Virus record (IMG/VR): IMGVR_UViG_3300010299_003477
Strand: one strand, 5' to 3'
DNA from: an uncultured virus (IMG/VR IMGVR_UViG_3300010299_003477)
Lineage: Duplodnaviria; Heunggongvirae; Uroviricota; Caudoviricetes
Length of the DNA: 20,000 nt
Below are positions 2,289 through 20,000 of this stretch, piece after piece. Numbering within the stretch: the first letter of the stretch is position 1; every line of letters starts with the position of its first letter. The notes under the pieces were generated by a model. It was not told where the DNA came from and did not search any database. It saw nothing but the letters and a program-made list of their open reading frames with translations. The position numbers and the translations under genes are program-made.

Positions 2289-2295
2289 TTATACC

Positions 2296-5358: not shown

Positions 5359-5365
5359 AAAAAAC

Positions 5366-5408: not shown

Positions 5409-5418
5409 CAATTAAAAG

Positions 5419-5491
5419 TCTGAGTGGTAGGACTTGAACCTACAACCCCCGCACCCCAAATGCGGTGCGCTACCAATTGCGCTACACCCAG
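5419..5491 (-). tRNA. tRNA-Pro (TGG)
   Basis: Cloverleaf: acceptor CTGGGTG/CACTCAG, TAGCGCAATTGGTAGCGC D-arm, CCGCA-TTTGGGG-TGCGG anticodon arm, GTAGG-TTCAAGT-CCTAC T-arm; CCA not encoded. Confidence 0.95.
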
Positions 5492-5502
5492 AAATAAGAT
5501 AA

Positions 5503-5575
5503 TGGAGATAAAGAGATTCGAACTCTTGACCTTCTGCGTGCAAAGCAGATGCTCTCCCAACTGAGCTATACCCCC
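5503..5575 (-). tRNA. tRNA-Ala (TGC)
   Basis: GGGGGTA/TATCTCC acceptor with G3.U70 Ala determinant, TCTGC-TTTGCAC-GCAGA anticodon arm, AAGAG-TTCGAAT-CTCTT T-arm; CCA not encoded. Confidence 0.96.
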
Positions 5576-5582
5576 ATAATCC

Positions 5583-5777
5583 TTATCCGACTTTTTCAGT
5601 TAGATACTGAACATCGGAAGCAACATCGCTTTTAAAGCGCTTGAGTTCGTTTCGAAGAATATTAACTTCATCATTTAAAGCGCTGATTCTACCAAGAGCG
5701 TGAACAAGTCTTTTATTCTGCTCTTGAAGTCTGCTCTCAAAATAATTTCTATCGAATACATCTACGGTATCGGGCAT
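5583..5777 (-). CDS. Small coiled-coil hypothetical protein
   Basis: Start revised from 5831 to ATG 5777 (MPDTVDVF), which has an AAGGAG SD; heptad pattern LQEQNKRL...ISALNDEVNILRNEL. Confidence 0.7.
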   Translation of the reverse strand: MPDTVDVFDRNYFESRLQEQNKRLVHALGRISALNDEVNILRNELKRFKSDVASDVQYLTEKVG

Positions 5778-5823
5778 CTTCACTCCTTTTTTAAAAATTG
5801 AAAACCAAATTTGCTTTATTCTT

Positions 5824-5857
5824 AATAACATTTTACACCATTCACGTCAAATGTAAA
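5824..5857 (-). promoter_or_regulatory. Sigma70-like promoter upstream of small ORF and tRNAs
   Basis: TTTACA (5852-5857)-16 nt-TAAAAT (5830-5835), overlapping an alternative TTGACG-17 nt-TATTAA. Confidence 0.5.
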
Positions 5858-5863
5858 GTTATT

Positions 5864-6358
5864 TTACCACAAATAATTCTTCCAGATATCATTTATTTGA
5901 GAATTACTAACATATCTAAGAGAAGAATATCTTGGTGGTGCTGGAGTTCTTAGCAAATCCATGCCACTTTCTTTTGGCGTTCTATTACTTTTCTTTTGGT
6001 TGCATTTTCTGCAAGCAGCAACAAGATTGTTCCAAGAGTTATTGCCACCACGAGATTTAGGCAAAACATGATCTAATGTCAGTTCTTTATCTGGAAATCT
6101 GTTTCCGCAGTATTGACAAATATTATCATCTCTACAAAGAATGTGCTTTCTAGTTGGAGATACAATAGCTGTCCTATACTTTACCAATCGATTTAAAACA
6201 ATAACTGCTGGAAGCTCAAAAGTTTGGCTTGTTGAATTTATTTTTTGTGTGTAATTTTCAATTGCCTTTGCTTTGCCAATAATACAAAGAACTAAAGCCT
6301 CTAAAGAATCTATAACTTCGATTGGTCGAAAAGTAGAATCTAATTTTAAAGTTTTCAT
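5864..6358 (-). CDS. HNH endonuclease (McrA-like)
   Basis: RDDNICQYCG...LTLDHVLPKSRGG...WNNLVAACRKCNQKK: CxxC, DH, N, CxxCN motifs. Confidence 0.93.
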   Translation of the reverse strand: MKTLKLDSTFRPIEVIDSLEALVLCIIGKAKAIENYTQKINSTSQTFELPAVIVLNRLVKYRTAIVSPTRKHILCRDDNICQYCGNRFPDKELTLDHVLPKSRGGNNSWNNLVAACRKCNQKKSNRTPKESGMDLLRTPAPPRYSSLRYVSNSQINDIWKNYLW

Positions 6359-6486
6359 TATTCTTCTTCGTATTCTTCTTCACGCTCGTCATAACAAGAA
6401 AGACAAATTATCTCTCCATCTTCAGTAATTTCATAACCTGAATTATAAATGCAGGTATCGCAGAAATCACAAACTTTAGCAGTCAT
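6358..6486 (-). CDS. Small zinc-finger-like protein, 42 aa
   Basis: Below ORF-track cutoff; hand translation MTAKVCDFCDTCIYNSGYEITEDGEIICLSCYDEREEEYEEE; two CxxC pairs; TAATG overlap with HNH start; fills the gap. Confidence 0.75.
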   Translation of the reverse strand: MTAKVCDFCDTCIYNSGYEITEDGEIICLSCYDEREEEYEEE

Positions 6487-6493
6487 TTATTTT

Positions 6494-7063
6494 TTAATCT
6501 CCGTAAAAGTCCACATCAAGTGGAGTAGCTGGTAAAGGTTGCCAAATGGCAACAATAACTTGGTTTGGATCTTTACTTTGGGGATAAATAAAGCCTTTAA
6601 AGCCATATTCTCTTTCACCTAAAGTTGCCACTCTTTCAAAAACGTTTGTTGGGTAATATCTTGGAGTACCAAACTCTTTTTCTCTTATTTCTTTATATTC
6701 ATCAACACGTCTGGATAATCCAAGAGGATCTTTCATAACAGGATACAAATCATGTTTATTAACTGTAACAGTGTAAGCAGAGCCTTGAATTCTTCCAATG
6801 CCAGTATCTTCTTGCCCAAGACGAGTAAAATAAAACACTCTTGGACGATCCCAAGCTCGATATTCAGCTTGACTATACGTTTTTCTACCAGCAGCAGCAA
6901 TTTGAGGATCTAAAACTTCAATATCTGGAGTCGAAGAAACATGATAAAGCTGAACTTGGTCAGGAAGATCTAAAGGATAAGCATTATCTAACTTTGCAAG
7001 CTGCTCATCATCCATTATTTCTTCAGTTAAATATTTGTTCCAGTTTTCAAAAAGTTTTTTCAT
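6494..7063 (-). CDS. Putative ADP-ribosyltransferase-fold protein with MKKLFENW leader
   Basis: Leader MKKLFENWNKYLTEE; LYHVSS..I.VLDP...FYFT...Y.V.V...GFKGFIY pattern resembles H-Y-clade ART folds. Confidence 0.45.
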   Translation of the reverse strand: MKKLFENWNKYLTEEIMDDEQLAKLDNAYPLDLPDQVQLYHVSSTPDIEVLDPQIAAAGRKTYSQAEYRAWDRPRVFYFTRLGQEDTGIGRIQGSAYTVTVNKHDLYPVMKDPLGLSRRVDEYKEIREKEFGTPRYYPTNVFERVATLGEREYGFKGFIYPQSKDPNQVIVAIWQPLPATPLDVDFYGD

Positions 7064-7064
7064 T

Positions 7065-7412
7065 TTAAGTGTTTCCTGTATCTTCTTCTATAAAGAAATT
7101 ATCTATATCGTACTTATCATATTGTGCTGAAAACTCACTATAAGTCAACCCTAAAAATCTTGCAGCATCTATTTTTGATTTAGAAGTTGAAATAGCAAAT
7201 TTTAAAAGTGCTTCTTTCACAATATAATCCGATCTTCTCCAAATGTCAAGTCCATATAACCTGTATTTTAAATTAGCACATGCTAGTTCTAACTTTATAG
7301 CAATTAGATCTTCTAAAGTTAAATTAGAAATTAACACTAACAGATCATTGCTGATCAAATTATTATATGTTAATTTATTAATTATACTTTTATTCTTTAA
7401 TTTGCTAATCAT
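7065..7412 (-). CDS. Fis-like helix-turn-helix protein
   Basis: C-terminal ALLKFAISTSKSKIDAARFLGLTYSEFSAQYDKYDI matches the Fis/NtrC-type HTH pattern (AARxLGI...L..KY.I). Confidence 0.6.
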   Translation of the reverse strand: MISKLKNKSIINKLTYNNLISNDLLVLISNLTLEDLIAIKLELACANLKYRLYGLDIWRRSDYIVKEALLKFAISTSKSKIDAARFLGLTYSEFSAQYDKYDIDNFFIEEDTGNT

Positions 7413-7422
7413 TTGCTAATCA
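7401..7422 (-). repeat. Tandem 11-bp direct repeat TGATTAGCAAA x2
   Basis: Plus strand TTTGCTAATCA at 7401-7411 and 7412-7422, spanning the start codon. Confidence 0.8.
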
Positions 7423-7442
7423 CTACTGATCAATTCTTTAAT

Positions 7443-7471
7443 AATGTAATTTGATTTCAATAATCTGTCAA
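7443..7471 (-). promoter_or_regulatory. Sigma70-like promoter
   Basis: TTGACA (7466-7471) - 17 nt - TACATT (7443-7448) in an intergenic gap, with A-tracts upstream. Confidence 0.7.
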
Positions 7472-7489
7472 GGGACTTTTTTGTAATTT

Positions 7490-8263
7490 TTAATCTAAAC
7501 CAAGATCAATCTCATCTTCTGTAGGTTGCTCCAGATCTTGTTTAGCCATATCATAAGCTTGGTTAGAAGGCTCTTCAATACTTGGATCTAATTCTTTTTC
7601 AAACTTATCAAAATAAAGCTTTACATTTGTAATCAAGTAATCGTAGAATAATTCTTGATCTTCAGCATTAGATAACAACTCATAAGCATCAATTATGTTT
7701 GTTTCGATCTTTTTAAAACACGAATAAGCAATGTTTCTTCCAGTCTCGTCCTGACCTTCAATACCAAATTCTTTTCTTGGATCTTCAGGTTCTTCTTCTT
7801 CCGCTTTTTCAGCATCAGAGCGAATATCAATAAACTTGTCAGATTCTGGATTAGCTTCATCGTCTTCAATTTCAATACTAATCTCTTCTTCTAAATCTTC
7901 TTCAGAGTTGCCTGCTTTTGTATTCATTTCAACAGGAGTTAAAGTATTAATGATAGCTTGGATAACGTGAGCACGGAAAGACTTACGTTGTTCTGGGTCG
8001 GTTGTCATAATTTTGTAATCTGCTTCTAAAACAGGAACAATCTTCTTTAATAGATCTTCCAGAATGTTAATTCCAGTAGACTTATTTGGGGTTGGATTTG
8101 TATCAGAAACCTGAGCTTCCAAGATCAATAAATCGCGAATAATAGAACGTAGTTTTTGCTCTTCTATTTCAATTGCTTTTTGTTCTTGCAATCTTTTTCT
8201 TTTAGTGACTCTGATCATTTCTCTAATGTCTTGTCTCAGTTGTTTCTCTTCTTTTGTAATCAT
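7490..8263 (-). CDS. Acidic hypothetical phage protein
   Basis: 257 aa; ATGA-like overlap with upstream gene; contains KLRSIIRDLLILE leader-like motif. Confidence 0.75.
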   Translation of the reverse strand: MITKEEKQLRQDIREMIRVTKRKRLQEQKAIEIEEQKLRSIIRDLLILEAQVSDTNPTPNKSTGINILEDLLKKIVPVLEADYKIMTTDPEQRKSFRAHVIQAIINTLTPVEMNTKAGNSEEDLEEEISIEIEDDEANPESDKFIDIRSDAEKAEEEEPEDPRKEFGIEGQDETGRNIAYSCFKKIETNIIDAYELLSNAEDQELFYDYLITNVKLYFDKFEKELDPSIEEPSNQAYDMAKQDLEQPTEDEIDLGLD

Positions 8264-9051
8264 TTTAAAATGCCTCTTTTAAGGAAAATGTTATAAATTT
8301 GTTCGCTTATGCAGCCGCAGTCTTCGTCTCTCTTTCCAACAAATGGTTTAGAATACCCAGCAACTGCTCCAGCACCCATAGCTGAAATCTCTTCAATTGG
8401 CTCTGAGGACGCCGGTACAATACCTAGAATGTCCAGAAATTTTTTTGCCATAGCGTCATCTAAAACAAAATCTCGAAGGAGTTCTACAGCCTCTGGGGAG
8501 GTCGAAGCTTTACCTAAAAGATAGCGCATATCTGATGCATGAAATAAACTAAAGTCTTTATTTGTAATAATACTTGGCATGGATTCCTTAAAATCAGAAC
8601 TCATTACTGATTGTATGTATTCTGGGCTATGAACTTCTGGCTGTACTGCTGTTGTTTGTGGATTAAGAAGCATTACGCCTTTTTTCACATATCTATCGGC
8701 ATCTTTCCAACGCTGAACATCAGTTCCTTTGTTGCTTGCTCCAAGGGTAATAAAGTCGCCTTCTTGCAAATCACCTTCAGGTCCAATATAATTATAAGAT
8801 GCACCAACGGGAGAAGCTGATGGTGAAACTTGTATTTCCACATTTGAAAGTCCTGAAGTTAGTTCGTCCCACATGTCTATTGCGTTTTGGGCAGTAATAA
8901 CAGTGCCATCTTCAAGAGCGCGTTGATTTTTTAACGGATTTGAAATTAATATAATAACTTTATCGTTATTTTGTGAATACTGCTCTACCATAGCAAGATG
9001 CCCCCTGTGCGGAGGCTTAAAAGAACCAGGAACAATTGCAATCTTAGCCAT
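8260..9051 (-). CDS. HIGH-motif nucleotidyltransferase (cytidylyltransferase-like; PPAT/NMNAT superfamily)
   Basis: IAIVPGSFKPPHRGH (HxGH) and HASDMR (SxT/SxxR-like) motifs. Confidence 0.8.
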   Translation of the reverse strand: MAKIAIVPGSFKPPHRGHLAMVEQYSQNNDKVIILISNPLKNQRALEDGTVITAQNAIDMWDELTSGLSNVEIQVSPSASPVGASYNYIGPEGDLQEGDFITLGASNKGTDVQRWKDADRYVKKGVMLLNPQTTAVQPEVHSPEYIQSVMSSDFKESMPSIITNKDFSLFHASDMRYLLGKASTSPEAVELLRDFVLDDAMAKKFLDILGIVPASSEPIEEISAMGAGAVAGYSKPFVGKRDEDCGCISEQIYNIFLKRGILK

Positions 9052-9310
9052 CTAAAATTTCTCCATCTGATAGATTGTGCTCTAATATGTTTATTTTTGC
9101 TTCCAATAAATCATTTTTGGTTTCTAATCTTTTGGCTAATTTTCTAACTTCTTTTAAATATTCTTTTGCTGTTTCAATTTGTTGTTTCTCTCCAAAAGTT
9201 TTAGGACGCATTTGTCCAACGAACTCTTGAAGAGAACCAATATAATCAAAAATGTCTTTTTCAACATTTTGATTGTTTAAAAAATCTTTCCAGCTTTTTT
9301 CCACCGACAT
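9044..9310 (-). CDS. Hypothetical coiled-coil protein
   Basis: 88 aa ORF in operon context; heptad-rich C-half. Confidence 0.7.
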   Translation of the reverse strand: MSVEKSWKDFLNNQNVEKDIFDYIGSLQEFVGQMRPKTFGEKQQIETAKEYLKEVRKLAKRLETKNDLLEAKINILEHNLSDGEILDG

Positions 9311-9314
9311 AGCC

Positions 9315-10010
9315 TTATCTTTTAACGATTGACTTTTTTAAAGCTTCACGAACAGCGCGACGAAGTTTTGCTTCACTAAGACTCGGAGGAGCACCAAATT
9401 GGTCTTTTTCTTTGTCACCTTCTTCTGCTTGTTCTGCTGCTTGTTTCATCGGCTCTTCTTTATCACCGTCTTTATCAAGATCAAGATAATCAGGCTTTGC
9501 TTCTTCGTTTAAGTTATCAAAATTCATATTAAAGCCCCAGCTTTCAGCTAAAAGGCTGTTAAGTTCTTTGTTTTTCCATTTTTTGTTAGACATATTGTTT
9601 GCTCCTTTTTGCAAATGTTCAAAATAAATAGTATGCTTAATGCTGTCTTCCCAATCGCGAAAACATAAATTTCCTTGTTCGTAAGCTTCTCTTTCCATTT
9701 CTCTTAAATGTTCATCGTTTTGTGCGTATCCGTCGCCCATCTGACCTACTTGATCAAATTTGCCATTACAATTTTGAGTATGATGAACCAATTCATGAGA
9801 AAGTGAACGCATAACATCTTTAGGATGTCTTCCAGTAATGTAAAGAGTCACGCTTTTTTGTTCTGGATCGTAATACGCTGTTTTGCCAAGAGGGTTTTGA
9901 GCGTTTGTTTGATCTCTTTTCAAGAATAATCTTGGAGGAGATTCAAATCCCATACGCTCTTTTGCAAATGGCATAAATTGCTTTATCATTGGCTTAAGAA
10001 CATCAATCAT
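9315..10010 (-). CDS. Zincin-like (HExxH) protein with acidic C-terminal module
   Basis: HELVHHTQ...EREAYE; C-terminal DYLDLDKDGDKEE (DxDxDG Ca-loop-like); probable internal start at 9593. Confidence 0.65.
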   Translation of the reverse strand: MIDVLKPMIKQFMPFAKERMGFESPPRLFLKRDQTNAQNPLGKTAYYDPEQKSVTLYITGRHPKDVMRSLSHELVHHTQNCNGKFDQVGQMGDGYAQNDEHLREMEREAYEQGNLCFRDWEDSIKHTIYFEHLQKGANNMSNKKWKNKELNSLLAESWGFNMNFDNLNEEAKPDYLDLDKDGDKEEPMKQAAEQAEEGDKEKDQFGAPPSLSEAKLRRAVREALKKSIVKR

Positions 10011-10341
10011 CTAAAAATACCTTTTTTTGTTTATCTGAATACCAAATATATTCTAAATAGTTGTTAAATGGGTCTTTTACATAAGCACCTGTAGTTCCAT
10101 CACGATGTTCTACAATTTCTGCGTTTTCTGGGAAGTCTTTTTTACTATCTATAAGTATTCCAATATGTGCATATGGATACCATTTTTTATCAATAAGAGC
10201 AATATTTGTGTTTTCTACTTTTAATCTTATGTATTTTTGATCTCGAAAAGTTACTTCGCCCTTTAAATGGCTTACATACCATTCTTCCGCGACTTGCAAA
10301 TCATCAACTAATAAGGCTATGTGATCAATTACTGATTTCAT
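10003..10341 (-). CDS. VOC/glyoxalase family protein
   Basis: IDHIALLVDDL..A..WY...L, HIGI, YVKDPFNNYLE motifs. Confidence 0.85.
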   Translation of the reverse strand: MKSVIDHIALLVDDLQVAEEWYVSHLKGEVTFRDQKYIRLKVENTNIALIDKKWYPYAHIGILIDSKKDFPENAEIVEHRDGTTGAYVKDPFNNYLEYIWYSDKQKKVFLDD

Positions 10342-10606
10342 TTTGTTTGCTCTCCGACGCTTTTGAGATTATTCGCAGATTAAAAGTAAATAGTTCTATC
10401 TCGCCTCTAACGGGCTCTTTCATCGGAATAACAGTACAAACAGAAACAAGTCTATTAGATTTGATTTTATTGCTAATATTTGTTATTAAACCATAGTTTA
10501 ATTTCCAACTTTTGTCGATAGGACACCACTTAGACCACTCTACAATATCGCCAATACAAAAATCATCAGAGATTAGCTTGCCGAATGGACTATCGCTTGG
10601 TTCCAT
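10325..10606 (-). CDS. Hypothetical protein (possible SH3/KOW-like barrel)
   Basis: FCIGDIVEW...YGLIT pattern; operon context. Confidence 0.55.
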   Translation of the reverse strand: MEPSDSPFGKLISDDFCIGDIVEWSKWCPIDKSWKLNYGLITNISNKIKSNRLVSVCTVIPMKEPVRGEIELFTFNLRIISKASESKQNEISN

Positions 10607-10612
10607 TAATAT

Positions 10613-10750
10613 TTACCTTTCTTTTAAAATTGATGCTATTAAAGCCAATAAAGTTAAAGCAACAAATTCAAAACCCCAAAGAGCATAACAAATCCAAGTA
10701 ACAACAAGAAAAATTATAACCCTCCAGAACACACCAAATTCAAATAACAT
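10613..10750 (-). CDS. Small membrane protein, 45 aa
   Basis: Below ORF-track cutoff; MLFEFGVFWRVIIFLVVTWICYALWGFEFVALTLLALIASILKER; two hydrophobic segments; TAATG overlap with upstream gene. Confidence 0.7.
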   Translation of the reverse strand: MLFEFGVFWRVIIFLVVTWICYALWGFEFVALTLLALIASILKER

Positions 10751-11043
10751 TAGTTGTAGCCCACATAAAATATTTCTTTTCTGTCTATCATGACTACGTT
10801 GTTTGAAGAAACATAAACCATAACTCTATTTCTTGAATCTAAAGTTTCGTCTATCATAAAACAAGTAGTGCCTCTCGCAACCTTAATTAAGCTACGAGAA
10901 GTTATATCATAACACATTATGTAACCGCTTGAACCTCTTATTATCATTTCTGGAAGAAGTTCTTTATTTTTATCTGGTATTCCAGCTAACTGATTTAAAA
11001 CTCTTTGAAGTTTTTTTGTTATAACTGTATCTTCTAACTTCAT
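10750..11043 (-). CDS. Hypothetical protein
   Basis: 97 aa ORF; CTATTTA motif 4 nt upstream of ATG. Confidence 0.65.
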   Translation of the reverse strand: MKLEDTVITKKLQRVLNQLAGIPDKNKELLPEMIIRGSSGYIMCYDITSRSLIKVARGTTCFMIDETLDSRNRVMVYVSSNNVVMIDRKEIFYVGYN

Positions 11044-11063
11044 ACAATAAATAGAAGCTTAAA

Positions 11064-11300
11064 TTAACTTTCTTTATACTTTTTTAAAGCATCAAGTACA
11101 ACACGAGCAATCTTGCGACTATCAGCCGCTGAAGGCGAAGTTGAAGAAGTTGGATCGTAAGCTGCCAGCCAGTCCCCCACTTCTGAAAGAGGAACAAGAA
11201 CCGGAATAATAATACATTCTTCTGAAATGCTACTTCCGTCCGTGTCTTCAGTAGAAATGGTTCCTTCTACAACTTGAGAATAATCTGCGTTCATGTGCAT
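11064..11300 (-). CDS. Hypothetical protein
   Basis: 78 aa ORF, GGAG SD, follows putative virion genes. Confidence 0.65.
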   Translation of the reverse strand: MHMNADYSQVVEGTISTEDTDGSSISEECIIIPVLVPLSEVGDWLAAYDPTSSTSPSAADSRKIARVVLDALKKYKES

Positions 11301-11302
11301 TT

Positions 11303-12076
11303 TTAAGCTCCTGCTGCAATAGTTGTTGAGACATGGCTCAACTTAAATTTAGTTTGATCGCCTGCGGTGATTGTCACATTGTTCGCCCCAATGCCTAAAC
11401 CAACCATTAACTGCACGTCTGTAGGGACAGGAAGACCTGTAGTGTAAACGCCAGCAGAGCGAGCGGCGGCTTGGAGGTTCGCGTCGGTGTTGTCGAAAAT
11501 CATAAATTCACCACCACCAAGCCCGTCGCCACCGCGTATCGTAGTACAAACGCCATAGATCCCGTTATTCGGACCGTTTGAAGATTCTGTGTGTCGTGTA
11601 AATACACCATAAAGGGGATTGGTCACTGTCGAAAAACGCCCCATCGTACCGCCAGTCCCACACATCAAGCCGGTGTCCGTTGATGCAGCATCAAGGGCTG
11701 CACCGAAAACACCTTTCCATCTGAACGGGCATACGTCAGGGGAGCCCAGGGGAGGTACTTCCATGCGATAGGTCGACACAAGTAGGTCCAATGACGTGAC
11801 CTGTGTGCCATCAATTTCCAAGTTCTTGTACCAACGTGGTGCTCTAACAGTAGTACCGTAAAACCAGTTATAGTCACCAGAGCCAACAGGCAGTGCGTTC
11901 CATGTTAGTGTATGCCAAGCACCAGAAAAAGTAATTGTATTAACAAGACTGTCTGGATCATAAAGCGTCCATGAACCATCTGTTAAATCTATTATTGTTA
12001 GGGTCTTATCATATTCAGAACCACCAGCAGCAGGAGTTAGTGTCCAAACGCCATTCGTTAAAGTCCAGTCAGCCAT
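11303..12076 (-). CDS. Putative virion structural/receptor-binding protein
   Basis: Gly/Thr/Trp-rich, low charge, beta-rich; coupled (TAATG) to upstream fibre-like gene; C-terminal two thirds GC-elevated. Confidence 0.5.
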   Translation of the reverse strand: MADWTLTNGVWTLTPAAGGSEYDKTLTIIDLTDGSWTLYDPDSLVNTITFSGAWHTLTWNALPVGSGDYNWFYGTTVRAPRWYKNLEIDGTQVTSLDLLVSTYRMEVPPLGSPDVCPFRWKGVFGAALDAASTDTGLMCGTGGTMGRFSTVTNPLYGVFTRHTESSNGPNNGIYGVCTTIRGGDGLGGGEFMIFDNTDANLQAAARSAGVYTTGLPVPTDVQLMVGLGIGANNVTITAGDQTKFKLSHVSTTIAAGA

Positions 12077-13074
12077 TATCTATCACCTACAATAAGCCAA
12101 CCTAAAGCACCGCCAGCAATAATGGTAACTGCGCTCCAAGCGCTTTGAATTTTAGCTTCAGTTCCTGAGTCAATTGTTTCAGAACCAGACGGCTGTATAA
12201 CAATATTATTTGTTGCAGAGTTTCCATCGGCATCTTTAAATACAAAGATTCTTCCTCCACCAGCATCAGCTAAAGAAGGCAAGCTTGCTGTAACATGAGT
12301 GCTTGAACCAGAAATTAAATAATAATGATCTGATGTTTGTGCTGTAAAAGAAGCGCTATGCACTATAACTGCTCTACGTAGACCAGCCCGTGTTCTTAAG
12401 CCTCCATCAACATCAAGAGTATCCGTTGGATCAACTGTATTAATACCAACTAAATTTGCTGAAGAGGACACAAAAATAGTATCGTCTGCTACAGAAACAT
12501 CTTGATCGTTTCCAACAAAAAGAAAACCTTTGTCTAGGTTTGGTGTTGCGTTGGTACGACCAGCGCCGCCAACTTTAATTTGCCCAGCAGAAGCATCGAC
12601 GCGCATAACTTGCCCAATGTTCTGCAATAAATTAAATGAACCAGTTGGAGCTAATTTTGTAAAGCTACCAGATGTTCCACCAGAGCCTGTTTGAACGTAA
12701 AGTGTGTCACCAAGGCTATAGCCTGCTGTGTTTACATTTTTTAAACTACCAAGAGTAATGATTTGAACTTCTGCTCCATTATTTGCGTTAGAAGCTGCAA
12801 CACCAAAAGCTGGCATTTTATTTGGATCATCACATGCAGCAAGAGCAACAGTAGGCGTTTGTCCAGAAGCACCAGTAACAAAAACAACTTGACCTTTTGT
12901 TATTGAATCTCCCTCTGCATTTATCGCAGTAAAAGTAACTGCTGCATTTGCATAATGAGAATAAAGAGTTTCAATTCTTAAGTTTTCTTCTCCTATGCTG
13001 TAAGCCTCATCAGAGTATGGAGTTAAAACACTTGTTCCTGTTACAAAACTATTGCTGTTGATATTATAAGCCAT
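12076..13074 (-). CDS. Putative fibre/capsid-decoration protein
   Basis: G/S/T/A-rich; ITKGQVVFV...VALA...PAFGVA...V.IITLG resembles capsid-cement/decoration domains; VGINT..PT.TLDV.G fibre repeat; C-terminal TASLPS...IFVFKD..G.....I.IQPSGSETID domain common in phage fibres. Confidence 0.65.
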   Translation of the reverse strand: MAYNINSNSFVTGTSVLTPYSDEAYSIGEENLRIETLYSHYANAAVTFTAINAEGDSITKGQVVFVTGASGQTPTVALAACDDPNKMPAFGVAASNANNGAEVQIITLGSLKNVNTAGYSLGDTLYVQTGSGGTSGSFTKLAPTGSFNLLQNIGQVMRVDASAGQIKVGGAGRTNATPNLDKGFLFVGNDQDVSVADDTIFVSSSANLVGINTVDPTDTLDVDGGLRTRAGLRRAVIVHSASFTAQTSDHYYLISGSSTHVTASLPSLADAGGGRIFVFKDADGNSATNNIVIQPSGSETIDSGTEAKIQSAWSAVTIIAGGALGWLIVGDR

Positions 13075-13356
13075 TTAAATTTGCTCACCTTTATGTATTA
13101 ATAAACGCAAAGCGCCGTTACCTTTGATTACTCGATGGTAAACATAAGCTGGTATGTTATAAGTAGTGCCTTCTTTTAATAAAACAGGTAGTTCGTTATC
13201 CATCTGTAAAAACCAATTGTTTGATTCTAAAACTTTTATTTTTCTATTTTCACGATCTTGGTGCCAAATTAGCTCTTCAGAGTTTGTAGTTTCTTTAAAT
13301 TCTCGTAAAAATAGTTGATTACCAACTTTTTGTTCTGTAAATGGATAATCAGACAT
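13075..13356 (-). CDS. Cupin-like phage protein
   Basis: WHQD.E...W.LQMDNELP..L..G....IP..VYHRVIKG cupin two-motif pattern; ATG 13356 preferred over GTG 13368. Confidence 0.6.
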   Translation of the reverse strand: MSDYPFTEQKVGNQLFLREFKETTNSEELIWHQDRENRKIKVLESNNWFLQMDNELPVLLKEGTTYNIPAYVYHRVIKGNGALRLLIHKGEQI

Positions 13357-14485
13357 TTTGTTTTCCACTCATGTTAAATGGTCTTTCTAAATCTACAATG
13401 TTTATCTCTGCGGGCTCATCAGTTAGTTTAAATTTTCTAAAAATGAAATCTAAATATGTCACAAATCTTGAAATCTCAGTTTCAACTATTTGTTTCATTT
13501 CTTGCTCTAACGCCTCTTCGGCTTCTAAGATGGCTATATCGTAATCCTCATTTTCTTCTATATCTTCATCAGAATCAACATCAATCAATTTTTTATAATA
13601 TTCAAATACTTTTGGTGCTAAAGACTCTCTCATTCTTTGAATGTAATATTGTCTCTGTATAATATAAATTGGCATTAAAATTTCAGAGATAATCTCTCTT
13701 TTTATATTTTCTTTATTGTTGATGTAATTTTCAACTGATTTAATTTTTGTATAAAATGCATTCCTAATTTGGCGGAAAAAAGAATCTGAATTTATTTTGT
13801 CATTCTGTATTGTATAGATACTTTTCATATCTTCTGTAAATTTTTGCGAGTCTTCTAGAAAATTATTAAAATTGGTGCTTTTAATTGATAAAGTTTCTCC
13901 AAATCCAACAAGAATAAAATCTGAATTTTTATACCCGACTAAGACAGAGCCGTCTTTCCTGCCTGTGAAAACTAATCCATGTATTTTTTGTTTTTCACTT
14001 GCATTGTTTTCTAAATATGTTGAAAATGCAAGAGCTTGTTCGCTTGTGAATGGCTTATCTGTTCTGTTGAGCAAACTTGTTTCGTTACAAATCATTTCTA
14101 ACTCTTCGTCTATAAATAAATCATTTTGTTCTAATTGCTGTTTTAAATTATGATTTCTTCCATATACTTTTTTTGCCTCTTTATAATCAAAAATCGCATA
14201 TTTATTTAAATTTTTAACTTCAAATTTAAAAACAAAATCACCATATTCATATAAGAGATCATTTGAATTTCTAACGGTATAAATACCACGACCATAAAGG
14301 TCGCCCTCGCCTGGAATAAACCCTTTTTCTCTTAACGTTTCTATTCTATTTAAAATTTCGTTTTTTTGAAGACTTTCATTTCCTCTAGAGCCTTTACCGA
14401 AAGCATGATAAACAATAGCTTTATTTTCAAATGGTATAATCTCTTCAGAGATAAACTGTCGCCAATTTTCAAATAGAAGCTTCAT
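13349..14485 (-). CDS. Putative PARP-like ADP-ribosyltransferase with MKLLFENW leader
   Basis: VYH...GFIPGEGDLYGRGIYT...YG.FVFKFEV resembles the H...G.YG.GIY donor-site signature of H-Y-E ARTs; very AT-rich. Confidence 0.55.
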   Translation of the reverse strand: MKLLFENWRQFISEEIIPFENKAIVYHAFGKGSRGNESLQKNEILNRIETLREKGFIPGEGDLYGRGIYTVRNSNDLLYEYGDFVFKFEVKNLNKYAIFDYKEAKKVYGRNHNLKQQLEQNDLFIDEELEMICNETSLLNRTDKPFTSEQALAFSTYLENNASEKQKIHGLVFTGRKDGSVLVGYKNSDFILVGFGETLSIKSTNFNNFLEDSQKFTEDMKSIYTIQNDKINSDSFFRQIRNAFYTKIKSVENYINNKENIKREIISEILMPIYIIQRQYYIQRMRESLAPKVFEYYKKLIDVDSDEDIEENEDYDIAILEAEEALEQEMKQIVETEISRFVTYLDFIFRKFKLTDEPAEINIVDLERPFNMSGKQNV

Positions 14486-14496
14486 TGTGTCATACC

Positions 14497-15078
14497 TTAC
14501 CAGAATCTACCGGGGACATTTGTACCAAAGTCTTTATGAGCCCTGCAAGCCCAATAACCGGGTTTTGTTTTATCTTTTTTCTGATCGCACTTGTGCCTTG
14601 CAGCAAAACTTTTACGAGCTTCTGGGTCGTTCCAGTTGCCTTTTAGACCACCTTTTGCGTCACCATAAGTAACTTTCTTGACATTACCTGTTTTTGGATC
14701 GCGAACATAAACTTTATATTTCTTTCCTGAACCAGTATTTTTGGTTGGCTTGTTTAGTGGCGGGTCTTTTTTCTTGGACTCTTCTTCTAAAACTTCATCG
14801 TACATTGGAAAATCAAGCGGGACTCTTTCACCTTCAAATATCGCCCACTCACCTAAATCGGTATGCTTGAGGGTATGAAGATCAATTAACTGAGGATTAA
14901 TTTCTTTATTCTCGTACATCTTTCTTGCTTCGTGAATAACACGAAAATAGTTATCAGACCCAATACGATAAATATTTCTTGAAAAAGGAATCTTATTTTC
15001 AAGATGGTAGTCTACCATTTCAATAGCTTCGGTTTCTTCTTTAATTATTTGCTTTAATTTAGCTTCTGTTATTTTCAT
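14497..15078 (-). CDS. Phage protein with MKITEAKLKQIIKEE leader and basic Cys/His C-terminal domain
   Basis: KKYKVYVRDPKTGNVKKVTYG...RKSFAARHKC...PGYWACR module recognised from T4-like/large phage hypotheticals. Confidence 0.7.
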   Translation of the reverse strand: MKITEAKLKQIIKEETEAIEMVDYHLENKIPFSRNIYRIGSDNYFRVIHEARKMYENKEINPQLIDLHTLKHTDLGEWAIFEGERVPLDFPMYDEVLEEESKKKDPPLNKPTKNTGSGKKYKVYVRDPKTGNVKKVTYGDAKGGLKGNWNDPEARKSFAARHKCDQKKDKTKPGYWACRAHKDFGTNVPGRFW

Positions 15079-16100
15079 GGTTGGTTTCCTTTGGATACGT
15101 TTAAAACTTCCATAAAATGTTCGTATGCTGTGCCGTAGTATTCAGAAGATTGAAACAATCTTCGTAGTACTCGTGGCAGCGACTCACAGAAGGTGAGATC
15201 AAGGCTCGTCAGGTTCGTACAGCCCGCCAGACCGTCTACGTTCTCCAGCGACGTGCACCAGTAAGCGTCGAGGGTCGTCAGATTCGTACAGCCCGCCAGA
15301 CCGTCTACGTTCTGCAGTGACCTACACCGGCTGAGGTCGAGGTCCGTCAGGTTCGTAAGCCCCTGGAGCCCGTCTACGTTCTGAAGCGACTTGCAATTGC
15401 TGAGGTCGAGACTCGTCAGGTTCGTAAACCCCTGGAGTGCATCTACGTTCTGAAGCGACTTGTTCCCGGTGAGGAAGAGGCTCGTCAAGTTCGTAAGCCC
15501 CTGGAGCCCGTCTACGTTCTGCAGCGACGAGCACCTTTCGAGGTTGAGGTCCGTCAGGTTCGTAAGCCCCTGGAGCCCATTTACGTTCTGCAGCGACGAG
15601 CACCATCCGAGGTCGAGGCTCGTCAGGCTCGTGCAGCCCTTTAGCCCGTCTACGTTCTCCAGCGAATAGCAATGGTTGATGTCGAGGCTCGTCAGGCTCG
15701 TAAGCCCCTGGAGTCCGTCCACATTACGCAGCGAATTGCAATAGCTGAGGTCTATTTTTGTTGTAACGTTTAGTTCACGTAAGCCTGACAAGAAATTAAC
15801 ATTTTCTTCTTCTATATCTGACTCTGCAAACTGATCAATTACTTCTAGCTTTTTTAAGATTTCGCTATTTCCTGCTGGATCGCTGGCTTTAATTACGTCT
15901 TTGTACAGTAAATAAACCTCTACTCCTTGTGCAAACTCCCAAGGATCATTTGAAGATAGAAGTCTTATTATTTTTTGTGCCGGCGTAAGTTCTTCCTCTT
16001 CTTCATAATCATAATCATCATCATATTCGTCTTCTTCAATAAGAAGCTTAACAACTTCTTCTTTGATGATCTGATTCAATTTTGATTTAGTTATTTTCAT
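15075..16100 (-). CDS. Leucine-rich repeat protein (8 x 23-aa units) with MKITK leader
   Basis: Repeats LQNVDGLxGxTNLTxLxLxxCxS; ATGA overlaps at both ends. Confidence 0.92.
   Translation of the reverse strand: MKITKSKLNQIIKEEVVKLLIEEDEYDDDYDYEEEEELTPAQKIIRLLSSNDPWEFAQGVEVYLLYKDVIKASDPAGNSEILKKLEVIDQFAESDIEEENVNFLSGLRELNVTTKIDLSYCNSLRNVDGLQGLTSLTSLDINHCYSLENVDGLKGCTSLTSLDLGWCSSLQNVNGLQGLTNLTDLNLERCSSLQNVDGLQGLTNLTSLFLTGNKSLQNVDALQGFTNLTSLDLSNCKSLQNVDGLQGLTNLTDLDLSRCRSLQNVDGLAGCTNLTTLDAYWCTSLENVDGLAGCTNLTSLDLTFCESLPRVLRRLFQSSEYYGTAYEHFMEVLNVSKGNQP
15176..15752 (-). repeat. GC-rich 69-bp coding tandem repeat (LRR cassette)
   Basis: Recurring CCCGTCTACGTTCTGCAGCGAC core every 69 nt; 36/60 GC at 15481-15540 vs 18/60 at 16021-16080. 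Confidence 0.9.
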
Positions 16101-16954
16101 CCTTTTTTACCTGATTTTGATTTCTTGCCCCAATTTCCACGCTCTCCACAAGCTGATGGTGTTGGTCTGCAAGAAGGATATTTAGATCTTTTTTCATCTC
16201 CAGACCTACCGCATGGAGAGCACTTCTTTTTGCCTGTCTTTTCGTCCTTTCTGCAAGTGTTGCAATCAACCCAGCCACCTTTCTTTCCAGGTGCTCCTTT
16301 ACGACCAAACCAATCGCGAAGAGAAGTTTCAGATGATGGCTTCTTAGTTAGTTTTCTTTTTTTTTCATTTAGCTCTTTTTGTATTTCTTCGTCAATAAGA
16401 GAACTAAGAAAATCTGCCTGAGAGCCATGCTTTTTAACAGAATCTTCAAGTTGACCAATAATTTCTTTTATTTTCTTAATATCTTGGTCGGACATTTCTT
16501 TGCTTTCAAAAACTTTATTTATTTCTTCATCAATTATTTGATCGAGATGCTCAAAATCAATAGATTCTTTTTTGGAATTGCCCCAATTTTTAGCACCTAC
16601 TTTACGACATTTAACAAGTGCCCCTGAAGCGTATGCAGATGGCCAAACTTTATAACGAGATTTAACTTTATGATAACAAGCATCTTTCTTTCCTGAAGAA
16701 TTCTTTTTCTTTTTTCTATCAGCTACCTTGCGAGCACGTTTCTTGCCCTTTTGTTGCTTTTTCTTTTTCTCGTTTATTTCTTCTTCCTCAAGAGTGGCGG
16801 TGCCTCCTGCTTTTTTATAAAGTTGAGATGCTTCTTCTTTTGAGATCATGCCAAGTCGAAGCATTTTTTTAATAGCTTCTCTTTGCCTTTGTTTTCTTTC
16901 CTCGTTAGAACGAGTAATTTCTTCTTCGTTAATATCACCATATAAATCTTGCAT
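16097..16954 (-). CDS. Lys-rich, Cys-containing phage protein
   Basis: KKDACYHKVKSRYKVWPSAYASGALVKCRKVGAKNWG and LRDWF...GGWVDC...YPSCRP modules recognised from T4-like phage hypotheticals; separated by acidic I.xEE spacers. Confidence 0.75.
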   Translation of the reverse strand: MQDLYGDINEEEITRSNEERKQRQREAIKKMLRLGMISKEEASQLYKKAGGTATLEEEEINEKKKKQQKGKKRARKVADRKKKKNSSGKKDACYHKVKSRYKVWPSAYASGALVKCRKVGAKNWGNSKKESIDFEHLDQIIDEEINKVFESKEMSDQDIKKIKEIIGQLEDSVKKHGSQADFLSSLIDEEIQKELNEKKRKLTKKPSSETSLRDWFGRKGAPGKKGGWVDCNTCRKDEKTGKKKCSPCGRSGDEKRSKYPSCRPTPSACGERGNWGKKSKSGKKG

Positions 16955-16962
16955 AGTTTTGG

Positions 16963-16997
16963 TATCCTTGCTTTAAATAGTTAGCAGTCAAAGGACA
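16963..16997 (-). promoter_or_regulatory. ACTATTTA motif within potential SD-sequestering hairpin
   Basis: mRNA sense TGTCCTT (16991-16997) ... ACTATTTA (16974-16981) ... AAGGATA (16963-16969), ATG at 16954. Confidence 0.45.
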
Positions 16998-17010
16998 ATA
17001 CAAAAAAATA

Positions 17011-17943
17011 TTATCCTTTTAAAACTTCCATAAACTGCTCGTATGCTGTGCCACTGCTATCAGATTCAAACCTTTCTTGTAATTCTGGTGGTAGCGATGA
17101 GCACTCTATGAGGGAGAGGCTCGTCAGGTTCGTGCAGCCCTTCAACCCATCTACGTTCTGCAGCGAATTGCAGAAGCCGAGGTTGAGGTACATCAGGTTC
17201 GTGCATTCCTTTAGCCCGTCTACGTTCTCCAGCGACTCGCAGAAGCTGAGGTAGAGGTACATCAGGTTCGTGCATTCCTTTAGCCCGTCCACGTTCTGCA
17301 GCGACTTGCACCTGTTGAGGTTGAGCCAATTCAAGTTCGTACAGCCCGCCAGCCCGTCTACGTTCTGCAGCAACTCGCATTTGTAGAGGTTGAGGTCCGT
17401 CAGGTTCGTGAGTCCTTGGAGCCCGTCTACGTTCTCCAGCGACGTGCACCCGTTGAGTTTGAGGCTCGTCAGGTTCTTGCAAAACCTTAAAAAATCAACG
17501 TTTGTGATAAAATCATTTGCAATATTAAGTCTCTCAATCTGATCAAGCATATTTTTAACACGATCAGATTTTTCAGCAAAATAGTTTAAAATCATCCCAA
17601 GTTGTTGCGGAACAATTTCTTGCGGAAGATCAAATCCTTGTGTAGTTATTGAATTACTTTTTGAGTCGAAAACGAAATGACTTGCAATTGTATCGATGAG
17701 TTGTTGATATTCGAGTTGTGAAAATCCAGGTTGTGGATCTTCAAGGGCGTCAAGAATTGAAAGACCTTGCTGTACATTAGCAGAATCATCTGAAATTAGA
17801 AGCTTGATTATTTTTTGTGCGTAAGTAAGTTCTTCTTCTTCGTAATCATAATCATCATAATCATCATATTCGTCTTGTTCAACAAGAAGCTTAACAACTT
17901 CTTCTTTGATTATTTGCTTTAGTTTAGTTTTGGTGATTTTCAT
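17011..17943 (-). CDS. Leucine-rich repeat protein (5 full + 1 hybrid unit) with MKITK leader
   Basis: Same leader and C-cap as paralogues but a different N-terminal domain; GC-rich cassette ~17095-17480. Confidence 0.92.
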   Translation of the reverse strand: MKITKTKLKQIIKEEVVKLLVEQDEYDDYDDYDYEEEELTYAQKIIKLLISDDSANVQQGLSILDALEDPQPGFSQLEYQQLIDTIASHFVFDSKSNSITTQGFDLPQEIVPQQLGMILNYFAEKSDRVKNMLDQIERLNIANDFITNVDFLRFCKNLTSLKLNGCTSLENVDGLQGLTNLTDLNLYKCELLQNVDGLAGCTNLNWLNLNRCKSLQNVDGLKECTNLMYLYLSFCESLENVDGLKECTNLMYLNLGFCNSLQNVDGLKGCTNLTSLSLIECSSLPPELQERFESDSSGTAYEQFMEVLKG

Positions 17944-18890
17944 GGTTGGTTTCCTTTAGATGCATTTAAAGCTTTCATAAACTGTTCGTATGCTGTGCCG
18001 CTGCTATCAGTTCCAAAATATTTTTGCAATTTTATTGGCAGCGACTTGCACCCTTCGAGGCTGAGGCTTATCAGATTCGTGCAGTCCTCCAGACCGTCTA
18101 CGTTCTGCAACGACTCGCACCTGTAGAGGTCGAGTTCCGTCAGGTTCGTGCATTCCTTTAACCCGTCTACGTTCTCCAGCGACTCGCACCCTTCGAGGGT
18201 GAGGTGCGTCAGGTTCGTGCATTCCTTTAGCCCGTCTACGTTCTGCAGCGACTTGCACCCTTGGAGGTCGAGGGTCGTCAGACTCGCACAGCCCCCCAGC
18301 CCATCTACGTTCTGCAGCTTATCGCACCCGTTGAGATAGAGGGTCGTCAGGTTCGAGCAGCCCTTCAGCGCGTCTACGTTCTCCAGCGACTTACATTCAC
18401 TGAGGTCGAGCCACGTCAGGTTCGTAAGCCCCTCCAGCCCGTCTACGTTCTCCAGCGAGTTGCAGAAGCCGAGGTCGAGCCTCCACAGGTTCGTAAGCCC
18501 CTGGAGTCCGTCCACGTTCTGCAGTGATTTGCACCCTTCGAGGATGATTTTTTCTGTAACGTTTAGAACACTTAAGCCCGACAAGAAATTAACGTTTTGT
18601 ATGTCTGGCGACCTTGCAAACTGATCAATCACTCTTAATTTTTCTAAGATCTGATTATTTCCTGCTGGATCGCTGGCTTCAATATCGTCTTTGAAAAGTA
18701 AATAAACCTCTAATCCTTGTGCAAAAGTGCCAGGATCAGGTGAAGATAGAAGTCTGATTATTTTTTGTGCGTAAGTAAGTTCTTCTTCCTCTTCTTCGTA
18801 ATCATAATCATCATATTCGTCTTGTTCAATAAGAAGCTTAACTACTTCTTCTTTGATGATTTGCTTTAAAGTTGCTTTAGTGATTTTCAT
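17940..18890 (-). CDS. Leucine-rich repeat protein (7 units) with MKITK leader
   Basis: 23-aa LRRs; GC-rich cassette ~18037-18543; ATGA overlaps. Confidence 0.92.
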   Translation of the reverse strand: MKITKATLKQIIKEEVVKLLIEQDEYDDYDYEEEEEELTYAQKIIRLLSSPDPGTFAQGLEVYLLFKDDIEASDPAGNNQILEKLRVIDQFARSPDIQNVNFLSGLSVLNVTEKIILEGCKSLQNVDGLQGLTNLWRLDLGFCNSLENVDGLEGLTNLTWLDLSECKSLENVDALKGCSNLTTLYLNGCDKLQNVDGLGGCASLTTLDLQGCKSLQNVDGLKECTNLTHLTLEGCESLENVDGLKECTNLTELDLYRCESLQNVDGLEDCTNLISLSLEGCKSLPIKLQKYFGTDSSGTAYEQFMKALNASKGNQP

Positions 18891-19786
18891 GGTTGGTTTC
18901 CTTTGGATGCATTTAAAGCTTTCATAAACTGTTCGTATGCTGTGCCGATGTGCTCAAAAGAATGAAAAGATCTTTGCAGTGCTCGCGGCAGCGACTCGCA
19001 CCCGTTGAGGAAGAGGCTCGTCAGATTCGTGCAGCCCTTCAGCGCGTCTACGTTCTGCAGCGACGTGCACCCGCTAAGGTCGAGGCTTTTCAGGTTCGTA
19101 AGCCCCTGGAGCCCGCCTACGTTCTGCAGCGACTCGCATCTGTTGAGGTAGAGGGACGCCAGATTCGTACAGCCCTCCAGCCCGTCTATGTTCTGTAGCG
19201 ACGTGCACCAGCTGAGGTCGAGTTCCGTCAGGTTCGTGCATTCTTTTAGCCCGTCTACGTTCTGCAGCGACTCGCACCCGCTGAGGTGGAGCCAATCCAG
19301 ATTCATAAGCCCCTGGAGCCCGTCTACGTTCTGCAGCGAATCGCACCTGCTGAGGTCGAGTTCCGTCAGGTTCGTGAGCCTTTGGGGCTCGTCTACGTTC
19401 TGGAACCCGTCTACGTTCTTCAGCGACTCGCACCCGCTGAGGTCTATTTCTTCTGTGACGTTTAGATCACTTAAGACTGACAAGGAACCAACGTCTGGTA
19501 TATCTGACCCTGCAAACTGATCAATCACTCTTAGCTTTTCTAAGATTTGGCTATTTTCTGTTTGAGCGTTAGCTTCAATATCGTCTTTGACCAAAGAATA
19601 AATCTCTACTCCTTGTGCAAAAGTGTCAGGATCTTTTGAAGATAGAAATCTGATTATTTTTTGTGCCGGCGTAAGTTCTTCTTCTTCGTAATCATAATCA
19701 TCATAATCATATTCGTCTTGCTCAACAAGAAGCTTAACAACTTCTTCTTTGATTATTTGCTTTAAAGTTGATTTGGTTATTTTCAT
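18887..19786 (-). CDS. Leucine-rich repeat protein (6 units) with MKITK leader
   Basis: 23-aa LRRs, first with a 6-aa insertion; GC-rich cassette ~18980-19443. Confidence 0.92.
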   Translation of the reverse strand: MKITKSTLKQIIKEEVVKLLVEQDEYDYDDYDYEEEELTPAQKIIRFLSSKDPDTFAQGVEIYSLVKDDIEANAQTENSQILEKLRVIDQFAGSDIPDVGSLSVLSDLNVTEEIDLSGCESLKNVDGFQNVDEPQRLTNLTELDLSRCDSLQNVDGLQGLMNLDWLHLSGCESLQNVDGLKECTNLTELDLSWCTSLQNIDGLEGCTNLASLYLNRCESLQNVGGLQGLTNLKSLDLSGCTSLQNVDALKGCTNLTSLFLNGCESLPRALQRSFHSFEHIGTAYEQFMKALNASKGNQP

Positions 19787-20000
19787 AATGAGTTCCTTTT
19801 AGATGCTTTTAGGGCTTCCATAAACTTCTCGTGTGCTGTGCCACTGCTATCAGTTGCAAAATATTCTTGCAATTCTGGTGGCAGCGACGAACACCAGCTG
19901 AGTTCGAGAATCGTGAGCTTTGTAAGCCCCTGGAGTGCATCTACGTTCTGCAGCGACTCGCAACCGGCGAGGTTCAGGGTCGTCAGGTTCGTAAGCCCTT
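19783..20000 (-). CDS. Leucine-rich repeat protein, C-terminal part (5' end outside window)
   Basis: Absent from ORF track; hand translation ...GLTNLTTLNLAGCESLQNVDALQGLTKLTILELSWCSSLPPELQEYFATDSSGTAHEKFMEALKASKRNSL*; ATGA overlap with next gene. Confidence 0.9.
   Translation of the reverse strand, partial: GLTNLTTLNLAGCESLQNVDALQGLTKLTILELSWCSSLPPELQEYFATDSSGTAHEKFMEALKASKRNSL

Follow-up and report, generated by a model that had tools for sequence, protein, structure and literature searches.

We analysed a 20,000-nucleotide stretch of DNA (hereafter, the window) from the uncultured virus IMGVR_UViG_3300010299_003477, in which positions 15075-20000 hold a group of genes encoding leucine-rich repeat (LRR) proteins with a common N-terminal leader (leader 1). 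The window corresponds, in reverse complement, to positions 9596-29595 of G000, a linear, 50,848-base IMG/VR record with a CheckV completeness of 12%, and its source is an uncultured, contractile-tailed large phage of more than 161 kb from coastal/estuarine waters. All of the genes in question lie on the minus strand of the window. Four complete LRR paralogues and one cut by the window's edge were found (Table 1), in agreement with the initial annotation, which had counted at least five and had the array continue past position 20000. G000 as a whole carries seven LRR genes, and a 161-kb metagenome contig shows that another array lies immediately upstream, adding three LRR genes and a leader gene with non-LRR cargo and bringing the phage's total to 10 LRR genes and 12 genes with leader 1. 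The locus is part of two tandem arrays comprising 10 genes for internalin-like LRR proteins. The strings singled out in the initial annotation (WRLDLGF, MYLYLSF, DWLHLSG, and TTLDAYW), as well as the leader, the Asp/Tyr/Glu tract, and the GTAYExFM tail, were all found. The array had also been described as tandem, with 6-8 LRRs per gene. The paralogues do adjoin, but the array is interrupted by a basic, non-LRR gene of 285 amino acids (aa) at 16097-16954, and although the 23-aa repeat period was recovered, each gene has 5-8 canonical units, preceded by a degenerate one and followed by a truncated one. Leader 1 also heads a non-LRR gene of 193 aa (14497-15078), just beyond the boundary that had been drawn at 15075.

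All seven paralogues of G000 follow one plan, in which a leader of 22 residues precedes an acidic tract and a helical cap; 5-8 canonical repeats of 23 residues each come next, and a capping helix closes the protein. Pfam LRR_4 matched all four complete window genes above its cut-off (E 6e-13 to 1e-24; 49-86 bits vs a cut-off of 27), NVDGL anchors recur at 23-residue spacing in seven of seven paralogues, and, according to Tandem Repeats Finder, each of the four complete genes contains a 69-bp array, with copy numbers of 5.2-8.1. In an AlphaFold2 model of the 316-aa protein (mean predicted local distance difference test score, pLDDT, 90.2), the leader forms a helix (residues 5-27; pLDDT ~70), the acidic Asp/Tyr/Glu tract (26-35) is disordered, and a helical cap at residues 40-86 precedes nine short beta-strands with 23-residue spacing, which correspond to unit positions 3-5; a helix at 300-313 caps the solenoid. 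The best Foldseek matches were the Listeria internalins InlA, InlF, InlC2, InlB, and InlH (E down to 2e-12), followed by the LRR domains of Roco and FBXL2. By their period, profile matches, and predicted curved solenoid, the proteins are LRR solenoids of the 22-23-residue, internalin/SDS22-like class. Cys occupies the ladder position in 45 of 46 units, and the mature LRR parts have an isoelectric point (pI) of 4.3-4.7 and a net charge of -11 to -19. The Listeria internalin family is characterised by a signal peptide, an immunoglobulin (Ig)-like inter-repeat domain, and a cell-wall or GW anchor. The model contained no signal peptide, Ig-like inter-repeat domain, or wall anchor, its N-terminus being a charged helix and its post-repeat part a single helix, and, judged from this prediction, the family is not internalin in the strict sense.

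Variability was determined across the 46 canonical units of the seven G000 paralogues, with unit positions 2, 3, 5, 7, 8, and 10 of LxxLxLxxCx designated x positions. Entropy was 2.3-2.9 bits at positions 3, 5, 7, 8, and 10 and no more than 0.43 bits at L1, L4, L6, C9, S11, L12, N14, V15, and L18. Pairwise pN/pS (nonsynonymous to synonymous differences) was 1.86 at x positions vs 0.40 in the remainder, nucleotide identity was 0.53 for x codons vs 0.81 for framework codons, and the five-residue signatures of 45 of 46 units were distinct. Among the 20 closest unit pairs (≥87% identical), 68 of 120 x codons differed, with 68 nonsynonymous and 0 synonymous changes, vs 42 of 340 framework codons, with 17 nonsynonymous and 25 synonymous (Fisher p 7e-14 for x vs framework codons, although this is not a formal test, since the pairs are not independent and the repeats recombine). 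Since conversion tracts are unable to skip single codons, x codons that are kept different in a homogenised frame point to selection for diversity. The initial annotation had expected variation to be concentrated at the x positions and these to form the concave, ligand-binding face. Both expectations held, in that entropy and substitution rates single out the x positions and the variable residues fall on and beside the predicted concave beta-strands (positions 3-5). A diversity-generating retroelement (DGR), in which a reverse transcriptase and a template repeat lie close to the variable gene, was rejected as the source of the diversity, since no reverse transcriptase (RVT_1) match was obtained in the 50.8-kb record while control genomes gave matches.

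The leader DNA and the gene junction are near-identical among neighbouring genes. Adjoining genes overlap by ATGA inside a common junction, GGAAACCAACCATGA, with which the non-LRR gene before the array also ends. Since a strain that is 98.7% identical is without the 389-aa gene, copy number truly varies, and a comparison of related contigs, as suggested in the initial annotation, shows arrays that differ between near-identical strains. The window and the genome record differ at 13 single bases (window 1170-19348), seven of which fall in two clusters (17142-17149 and 19340-19348) within LRR genes, the latter altering two concave residues. Differences among near-identical records in general form clustered patches, resembling conversion between unit types.

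A repeat-induced misassembly of fewer genes could also produce an apparent array. No public short-read contig spans it, no single independent contig confirms gene order over its whole length, and short contigs with alternative joints through the common leader occur, e.g., 17943 to 19742 in two runs. However, no pair of 69-nt units is more than 94% identical, and contigs of three runs from different studies contain unique 250-900-nt stretches of every gene with zero mismatches. Moreover, 19 runs from at least 14 studies (labelled freshwater, estuary, oyster, aquatic, and marine; dated 2014-2025) contained 56-82% of sampled words, the independent 161-kb contig is 99.86% identical over an 8.5-kb overlap, and window 1-12000 is matched at 100% identity by another IMG/VR record. 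On this evidence an assembly artefact is unlikely, to the point of being scarcely credible. An RNA run (X20) was rejected as evidence of transcription, as it held a few short pieces, 90-97% alike, of framework sequence only.

The LRR genes are chimeric. Their repeat parts (window 15194-15752, 17122-17481, 18038-18543, and 18988-19402) have a GC content of 0.56-0.60 and a GC content at third codon positions (GC3) of 0.78-0.86, whereas the leader-to-cap parts of the same genes have values of 0.30-0.39 and 0.19-0.37, respectively; GC3 in other genes of the record is 0.26. The boundary is sharp within each LRR gene and, with repeat GC3 of ~0.8 vs ~0.2 in the 5' part, the repeats are either foreign to the phage or have been kept GC-rich through some biased process. 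At the protein level, the unit type CxSLQNVDGL occurs in bacterial metagenome-assembled genomes (MAGs) of Cloacimonadales (62%), Chthoniobacter (49-53%), Aminicenantes, and Pirellulaceae. Since DNA identity to the MAG repeats was at most 77% over short stretches, no donor is nameable and the attempt to name one was dropped.

In contrast to the repeats, which appeared in 0 of 153 other leader-1 open reading frames (ORFs) among the matches listed, the leader is widespread. A degenerate DNA pattern for MKIT[KE]xxL[KN]QIIKEE, scanned against IMG/VR contigs, matched at least 136 stretches and gave at least 153 other distinct ORFs, 121 of them complete (median 102 aa), and 144 compared cargos fell into 121 blastp clusters. 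Leader 1 is an N-terminal module independent of cargo and, as in T4, a short peptide on unrelated proteins. Its conservation continues past the pattern to residue 22 and then ends (L/I/V at 16, V/L/I at 19, L/M at 20, and E at 21-22). A second [LIVM]-x-E site, a short motif, places Glu at 21/22 in 77 of 150 leaders, and the LRR genes of the window have it as L[IV]E; residues 12-14 form an IKE site (E14) that is fixed by the search pattern itself. Among prokaryotes (one genome each from 185,579 species), 229 pattern stretches were found, none of which encodes a relative. A profile of leader and cap searched against 1.84 billion representatives returned 222 proteins at E ≤ 0.001; the 10 at 1e-10 were the LRR family itself, and most of the other matches covered the leader part only, many at internal positions.

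A second leader (leader 2; M[KQN]KLFENW[RN][RK][FY][LI]xE) heads four genes of G000. In IMG/VR it was found on 64 ORFs with diverse cargo, the motif starting two residues after Met in 42, and some contigs also carry leader 1. The 378-aa leader-2 protein (13349-14485) gave no Pfam match at E up to 5 and no PDB sequence match, and its fold was set aside because the model (pLDDT 59) was unusable; its YHAF..GS and YGRGIYT strings are reminiscent of ADP-ribosyltransferase motifs. The 285-aa gene within the array has a WPSAYAS-type motif in common with a 655-aa protein of a complete T4-like genome (G001 146356-148323), which has leader 2 at its start and an internal leader-1 copy. Internal leader copies occur in many database proteins, and their arrangement suggests multi-module precursors.

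In T4, a 10-residue capsid-targeting sequence (CTS), the IPIII N-terminus, is described as sufficient for head packaging and as the only element common to otherwise diverse internal proteins (PMC9026906, PMC3012670), and propeptides of 10-20 residues with cleavage C-terminal to Glu have been reported (PMC5694885). We searched for a prohead protease in 24 contigs, comprising those of at least 39.9 kb from the listed leader-1 pattern matches plus L161. Peptidase_S77, the T4 gp21 family, exceeded its cut-off in 18 of these 24 leader-bearing contigs (5 of 5 plus 13 of 19), including both records that are at least 90% complete, and a Gp23-type capsid protein was present in five of five contigs. By arithmetic on match positions, 15 of the 18 protease-bearing contigs have a leader gene matched by the pattern no more than 18 kb from the protease, and both kinds of gene occur together in five of seven fragments of 40-52 kb. 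The protease gene has an immediate neighbour with leader 1, a degenerate leader 1, or a leader-2-like start in four of six head modules, and a conserved protein of ~130 aa that follows the protease has a leader-like N-terminus. The reading of the leader as a capsid-targeting signal therefore has consistent but indirect support, which comes from other phages and not yet from the phage under study.

Considering these data together, we propose, at what we judge to be an even chance, that the LRR set constitutes head-loaded, leader-clipped, delivered variable binders built as chimeric genes. A 5' module of phage composition (the 22-residue amphipathic leader, the acidic Asp/Tyr/Glu tract, and the helical cap) is fused to a high-GC, Cys-ladder LRR run. 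The leader would act as a T4-type prohead-core targeting propeptide, drawing the protein into the assembling head, where a gp21-type prohead protease would clip it after Glu; the LRR body would then be retained in the virion and pass into the host together with the DNA. As nearly every unit has a concave face of its own, the set would recognise diverse host targets. Homology for unequal crossing-over and patchy gene conversion would come from the leader and tail junctions, which are almost the same in neighbouring genes, and these events would change copy number and shuffle units. Packaging, cleavage, injection, host targets, and an anti-defence role are putative for the LRR proteins and drawn from analogy.

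Several observations weigh against this proposal. Neither Peptidase_S77 nor any head gene was found in ~118 kb of the >161-kb phage, as tiled by G028 (reached upstream by exact-word walking, which gave nothing new on the other side), G000, and G025 (reached via leader 2). Of the antibody-like set of injected binders put forward in the initial annotation, the LRR solenoids with concave variation are supported and injection is putative. The arrays sit among NUDIX, PhoH, and other non-structural genes, outside any head module, and the T4 late-promoter word TATAAATA is not enriched, with just two occurrences on the coding strand of the record. T4 internal proteins are basic. In contrast, the LRR parts are acidic (pI 4.3-4.7) and not the small basic cargo of T4, and leader cargos are net negative in 112 of 150 cases. 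With no LRR among the 153 leader ORFs, the IMG/VR sample offers no independent replicate. In addition, microdiversity among near-identical records is not clearly concentrated on the concave face, since x positions, with 26% of LRR residues, take 6 of 16 unique LRR substitutions. Finally, because the repeats are foreign in composition, some of the diversity at x positions could be older than their entry into the phage and may have been imported, not generated there.

The negative search for head genes in ~118 kb and the non-structural surroundings of the arrays also favour an explanation in which the LRR proteins stay unpackaged and serve inside the cell as host-takeover or counter-defence binders, the leader being a docking helix, a turnover tag, or a DNA-level recombination handle. 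The neighbours of the arrays (NUDIX, a trypsin-like protease, and PIN-PhoH) fit such a role, as do the Cys ladder and acidic surface, which suit a cytoplasmic protein. In the complete, 185-kb G001, three of four leader-1 genes lie ~40 kb from the head module, and near-identical leader DNA and junctions would aid recombination whatever the peptide's role. However, leader-type genes flank the prohead protease in most of the head modules described above, and most of the short fragments with a leader gene hold the protease as well. The leader is always extreme N-terminal or at module boundaries and ends in Glu sites of the kind that such proteases cut, and a DNA-level handle alone would not explain conservation of the peptide over 121 unrelated cargo clusters. 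We therefore consider this explanation unlikely, if by no means negligible.

Since the nearest folds are internalin-type surface adhesins, the LRR proteins might instead be adhesins on the virion exterior (head, collar, or tail), with the N-terminal module as an anchor, as proposed for DUF7941 of phage Goslar. Host recognition is the role assigned there to proteins in which a common N-terminal module precedes hydrolase, LRR, or carbohydrate-binding domains (PMC13742148). Paralogue expansion and copy-number change are typical of receptor-binding genes, and genes of structural type are found downstream on the same strand, encoding a cement-like protein, gp25-/gp6-like baseplate wedge proteins, and giant proteins, of which one has a Laminin_G domain. 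On the other hand, leader cargos are mostly small (median 102 aa), unrelated, and without adhesin features, and the leader, a charged helix of 22 residues, is unlike a folded anchor domain. There are one or two Cys per unit and no export or oligomerisation signal, and leader genes cluster with the prohead protease and not with fibre genes, all of which makes an external position quite unlikely.

A last alternative accepts targeting to the prohead core but treats the acidic cargos as scaffold-like accessories, degraded or expelled before DNA packaging and never delivered. The predominantly negative charge of the cargos and the low pI of the LRR parts speak for it, since acidic proteins fit packaged DNA badly, as does the leader-like N-terminus of the conserved protein after the protease; multi-site propeptides are described as being cleared from giant-phage heads (PMC9026906, PMC5694885). 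It gives no reason, however, for ten paralogues with selectively diversified binding faces, and LRR solenoids are compact, with few internal [LIVM]xE sites in the framework consensus. We regard this alternative as very unlikely.

A more specific form of the delivered-binder proposal is that the ten LRR genes make up an injected library, each member neutralising a different host defence or other host protein at DNA entry, and that the library arose from an acquired high-GC LRR cassette. Concave-face selection and recombination at leader and tail junctions would maintain the diversity, making the set a virus-side counterpart of an immune-receptor repertoire. We advance this only tentatively, as possible but doubtful.

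Positions of the LRR genes, leader genes, and other paralogous families are collected in Table 1.

Table 1. Genes of the LRR arrays and related features. Positions refer to the window unless another record is named.
Feature	Position	Strand	Details
LRR paralogue, cut by window edge	19783..20000	-	3' end, 71 codons + stop; full gene 350 aa at G000 8761-9813
LRR paralogue, 299 aa	18887..19786	-	Leader codons 19721-19786; 69-bp array 18988-19402; LRR_4 E 2.2e-19
LRR paralogue, 316 aa (modelled)	17940..18890	-	Leader codons 18825-18890; 69-bp array 18038-18543; LRR_4 E 8.5e-20; pLDDT 90.2
LRR paralogue, 310 aa, longer type-B N-terminal cap	17011..17943	-	Leader codons 17878-17943; array 17122-17481; LRR_4 E 6.1e-13
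Non-LRR gene inside array, 285 aa, Lys/Cys-rich, pI 9.7, without leader	16097..16954	-	phrog_727 E 4e-25
LRR paralogue, 341 aa	15075..16100	-	Leader codons 16035-16100; array 15194-15752; LRR_4 E 1.2e-24
Leader-1 gene, non-LRR cargo, 193 aa, basic, pI 9.3	14497..15078	-	phrog_7595; start overlaps stop of upstream LRR gene (ATGA)
Leader-2 gene, 378 aa	13349..14485	-	Start MKLLFENWRQFISEE; model pLDDT 59
Leader-2 gene, 189 aa, away from array	6494..7063	-	MKKLFENWNKYLTEE
Further leader-2 genes of G000	G000 5946-6500, 6543-7598
Pentapeptide-repeat paralogues of G028	L293 17694-18230; L294 7375-7866, 8975-9376, 12184-12660, 14797-15345		Named from sequence appearance

The ~118 kb of records contain early-type genes, the arrays, a sugar-synthesis block, baseplate wedge proteins, two giant proteins, and replication genes. 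Within the window, a PIN-PhoH fusion (4021-5358), an HNH endonuclease (5864-6358), and two GT4 glycosyltransferases (1-2288) are encoded on the minus strand, as are two proteins (3100-3786 and 9315-10010) with sub-threshold, zinc-metallopeptidase-like Pfam matches (ATLF, 21 bits vs 27; Peptidase_M91/DUF6647, 19-23 vs 24-25). A PhoH-based placement of the phage was abandoned, since the matches were too distant. Downstream, at G000 29.8-41 kb, are ORFs named from sequence appearance as sugar-nucleotide and radical S-adenosylmethionine (SAM)-like. Between the two arrays, G000 4735-5478 encodes a trypsin-like peptidase (Trypsin_2, E 7e-16) with a signal-peptide-like hydrophobic N-terminus. A second expanded repeat-protein family lies ~20-35 kb upstream of the arrays in G028, where at least five pentapeptide-repeat paralogues (six in the overall tally) have a common MNLSNGWFQNFNF start; a GroEL-like gene, likewise named from its appearance, is in the same region. 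The gp25-/gp6-like baseplate wedge genes are flanked by giant proteins of >1999 aa and of 3027 aa, the latter with Laminin_G_3 (G000 44850-50848; G025, L290 2210-11293). The >1999-aa protein had no family match, and a search against phage records was also without a match.

Relatives of the locus were sought by several routes. No match to the window was obtained by megablast among 50,697 phage records, tblastn of the phage records with an LRR protein returned only four Listeria phage records (28-29% identity), and tblastn with a 30-residue leader piece gave nothing meaningful. Single-protein and alignment queries of IMG/VR revealed no further LRR arrays among the matches listed. In the literature, including that on capsid targeting in cyanophages and marine T4-like phages, no published description of the leader system or of phage LRR paralogues was found. 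What is new here is the chimeric composition of repeat vs 5' part, together with the spread of the leader and its linkage to the protease across IMG/VR phages.

The chimeric composition probably documents recent domain capture by a low-GC phage from a high-GC organism. If the leader truly loads heads, the injected payloads of marine T4-like phages would far exceed in size and variety that of T4, with its Alt and three internal proteins, and one payload slot would have been turned into a multi-gene set of programmable binders. This would represent a new counter-defence logic, in which many ready-made binders arrive with the genome. It would also offer a natural, compact Cys-ladder LRR scaffold whose variable positions are known, as well as a short tag with which foreign proteins could be loaded into the heads of marine phages.

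Among known systems, IPI, IPII, IPIII, and Alt of T4, with their CTS and gp21, resemble the LRR genes in that a short N-terminal peptide, here a putative propeptide with candidate Glu-ending sites, is found on unrelated, fast-evolving proteins (as described in PMC3012670 and PMC9026906). In both cases the genes are clustered and polymorphic, and here the leaders of relatives co-occur with a gp21-family protease. The likeness rests on organisation, not on sequence comparison, as the leader has 22 residues vs 10 for the T4 CTS. The leader is also used far more widely, on at least 153 ORFs, and its LRR cargos are acidic solenoids in ten copies, not small basic proteins; packaging is known for T4 and putative here. 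The ejection proteins of phiKZ, 201phi2-1, and SPN3US offer a second parallel, since a large protein mass is delivered to the host, gp21-like proteases cut the propeptides, which have several x-x-Glu sites, and gp53 and gp54 of SPN3US have identical N-termini (PMC5694885). Their propeptides, however, are mostly longer than 100 residues, LRR cargo is not described there, and no chimallivirus markers were seen in the phage studied here. The DUF7941 proteins of Goslar likewise combine a common N-terminal module with variable binding domains, among them LRR and beta-helix types, and one phage has several such paralogues, but the module is described as a folded domain forming tail-associated external fibres (PMC13742148), whereas here a 22-residue helix is linked to the head protease locus of relatives.

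Outside phages, Flavobacterium psychrophilum has consecutive LRR genes whose number varies among close isolates, although these are bacterial, encode cell-surface proteins, and are not described as having a leader module (PMC8400371). The Listeria internalins are the best structural matches, having 22-23-residue repeats and a short convex-side helix and binding their ligands on the concave sheet; the phage proteins differ in being without the signal peptide, Ig-like domain, and wall anchor, in having Cys instead of Asn at the ladder position, and in an identity of only 17-28%. In lamprey variable lymphocyte receptors (VLRs), LRR cassettes are exchanged by gene conversion. These receptors and DGR-diversified phage receptor-binding proteins resemble the LRR set as repertoires of binders whose framework is conserved and whose ligand-facing residues are hypervariable. 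Unlike in either, the diversity of the phage is germ-line and held as paralogues, with no somatic assembly.

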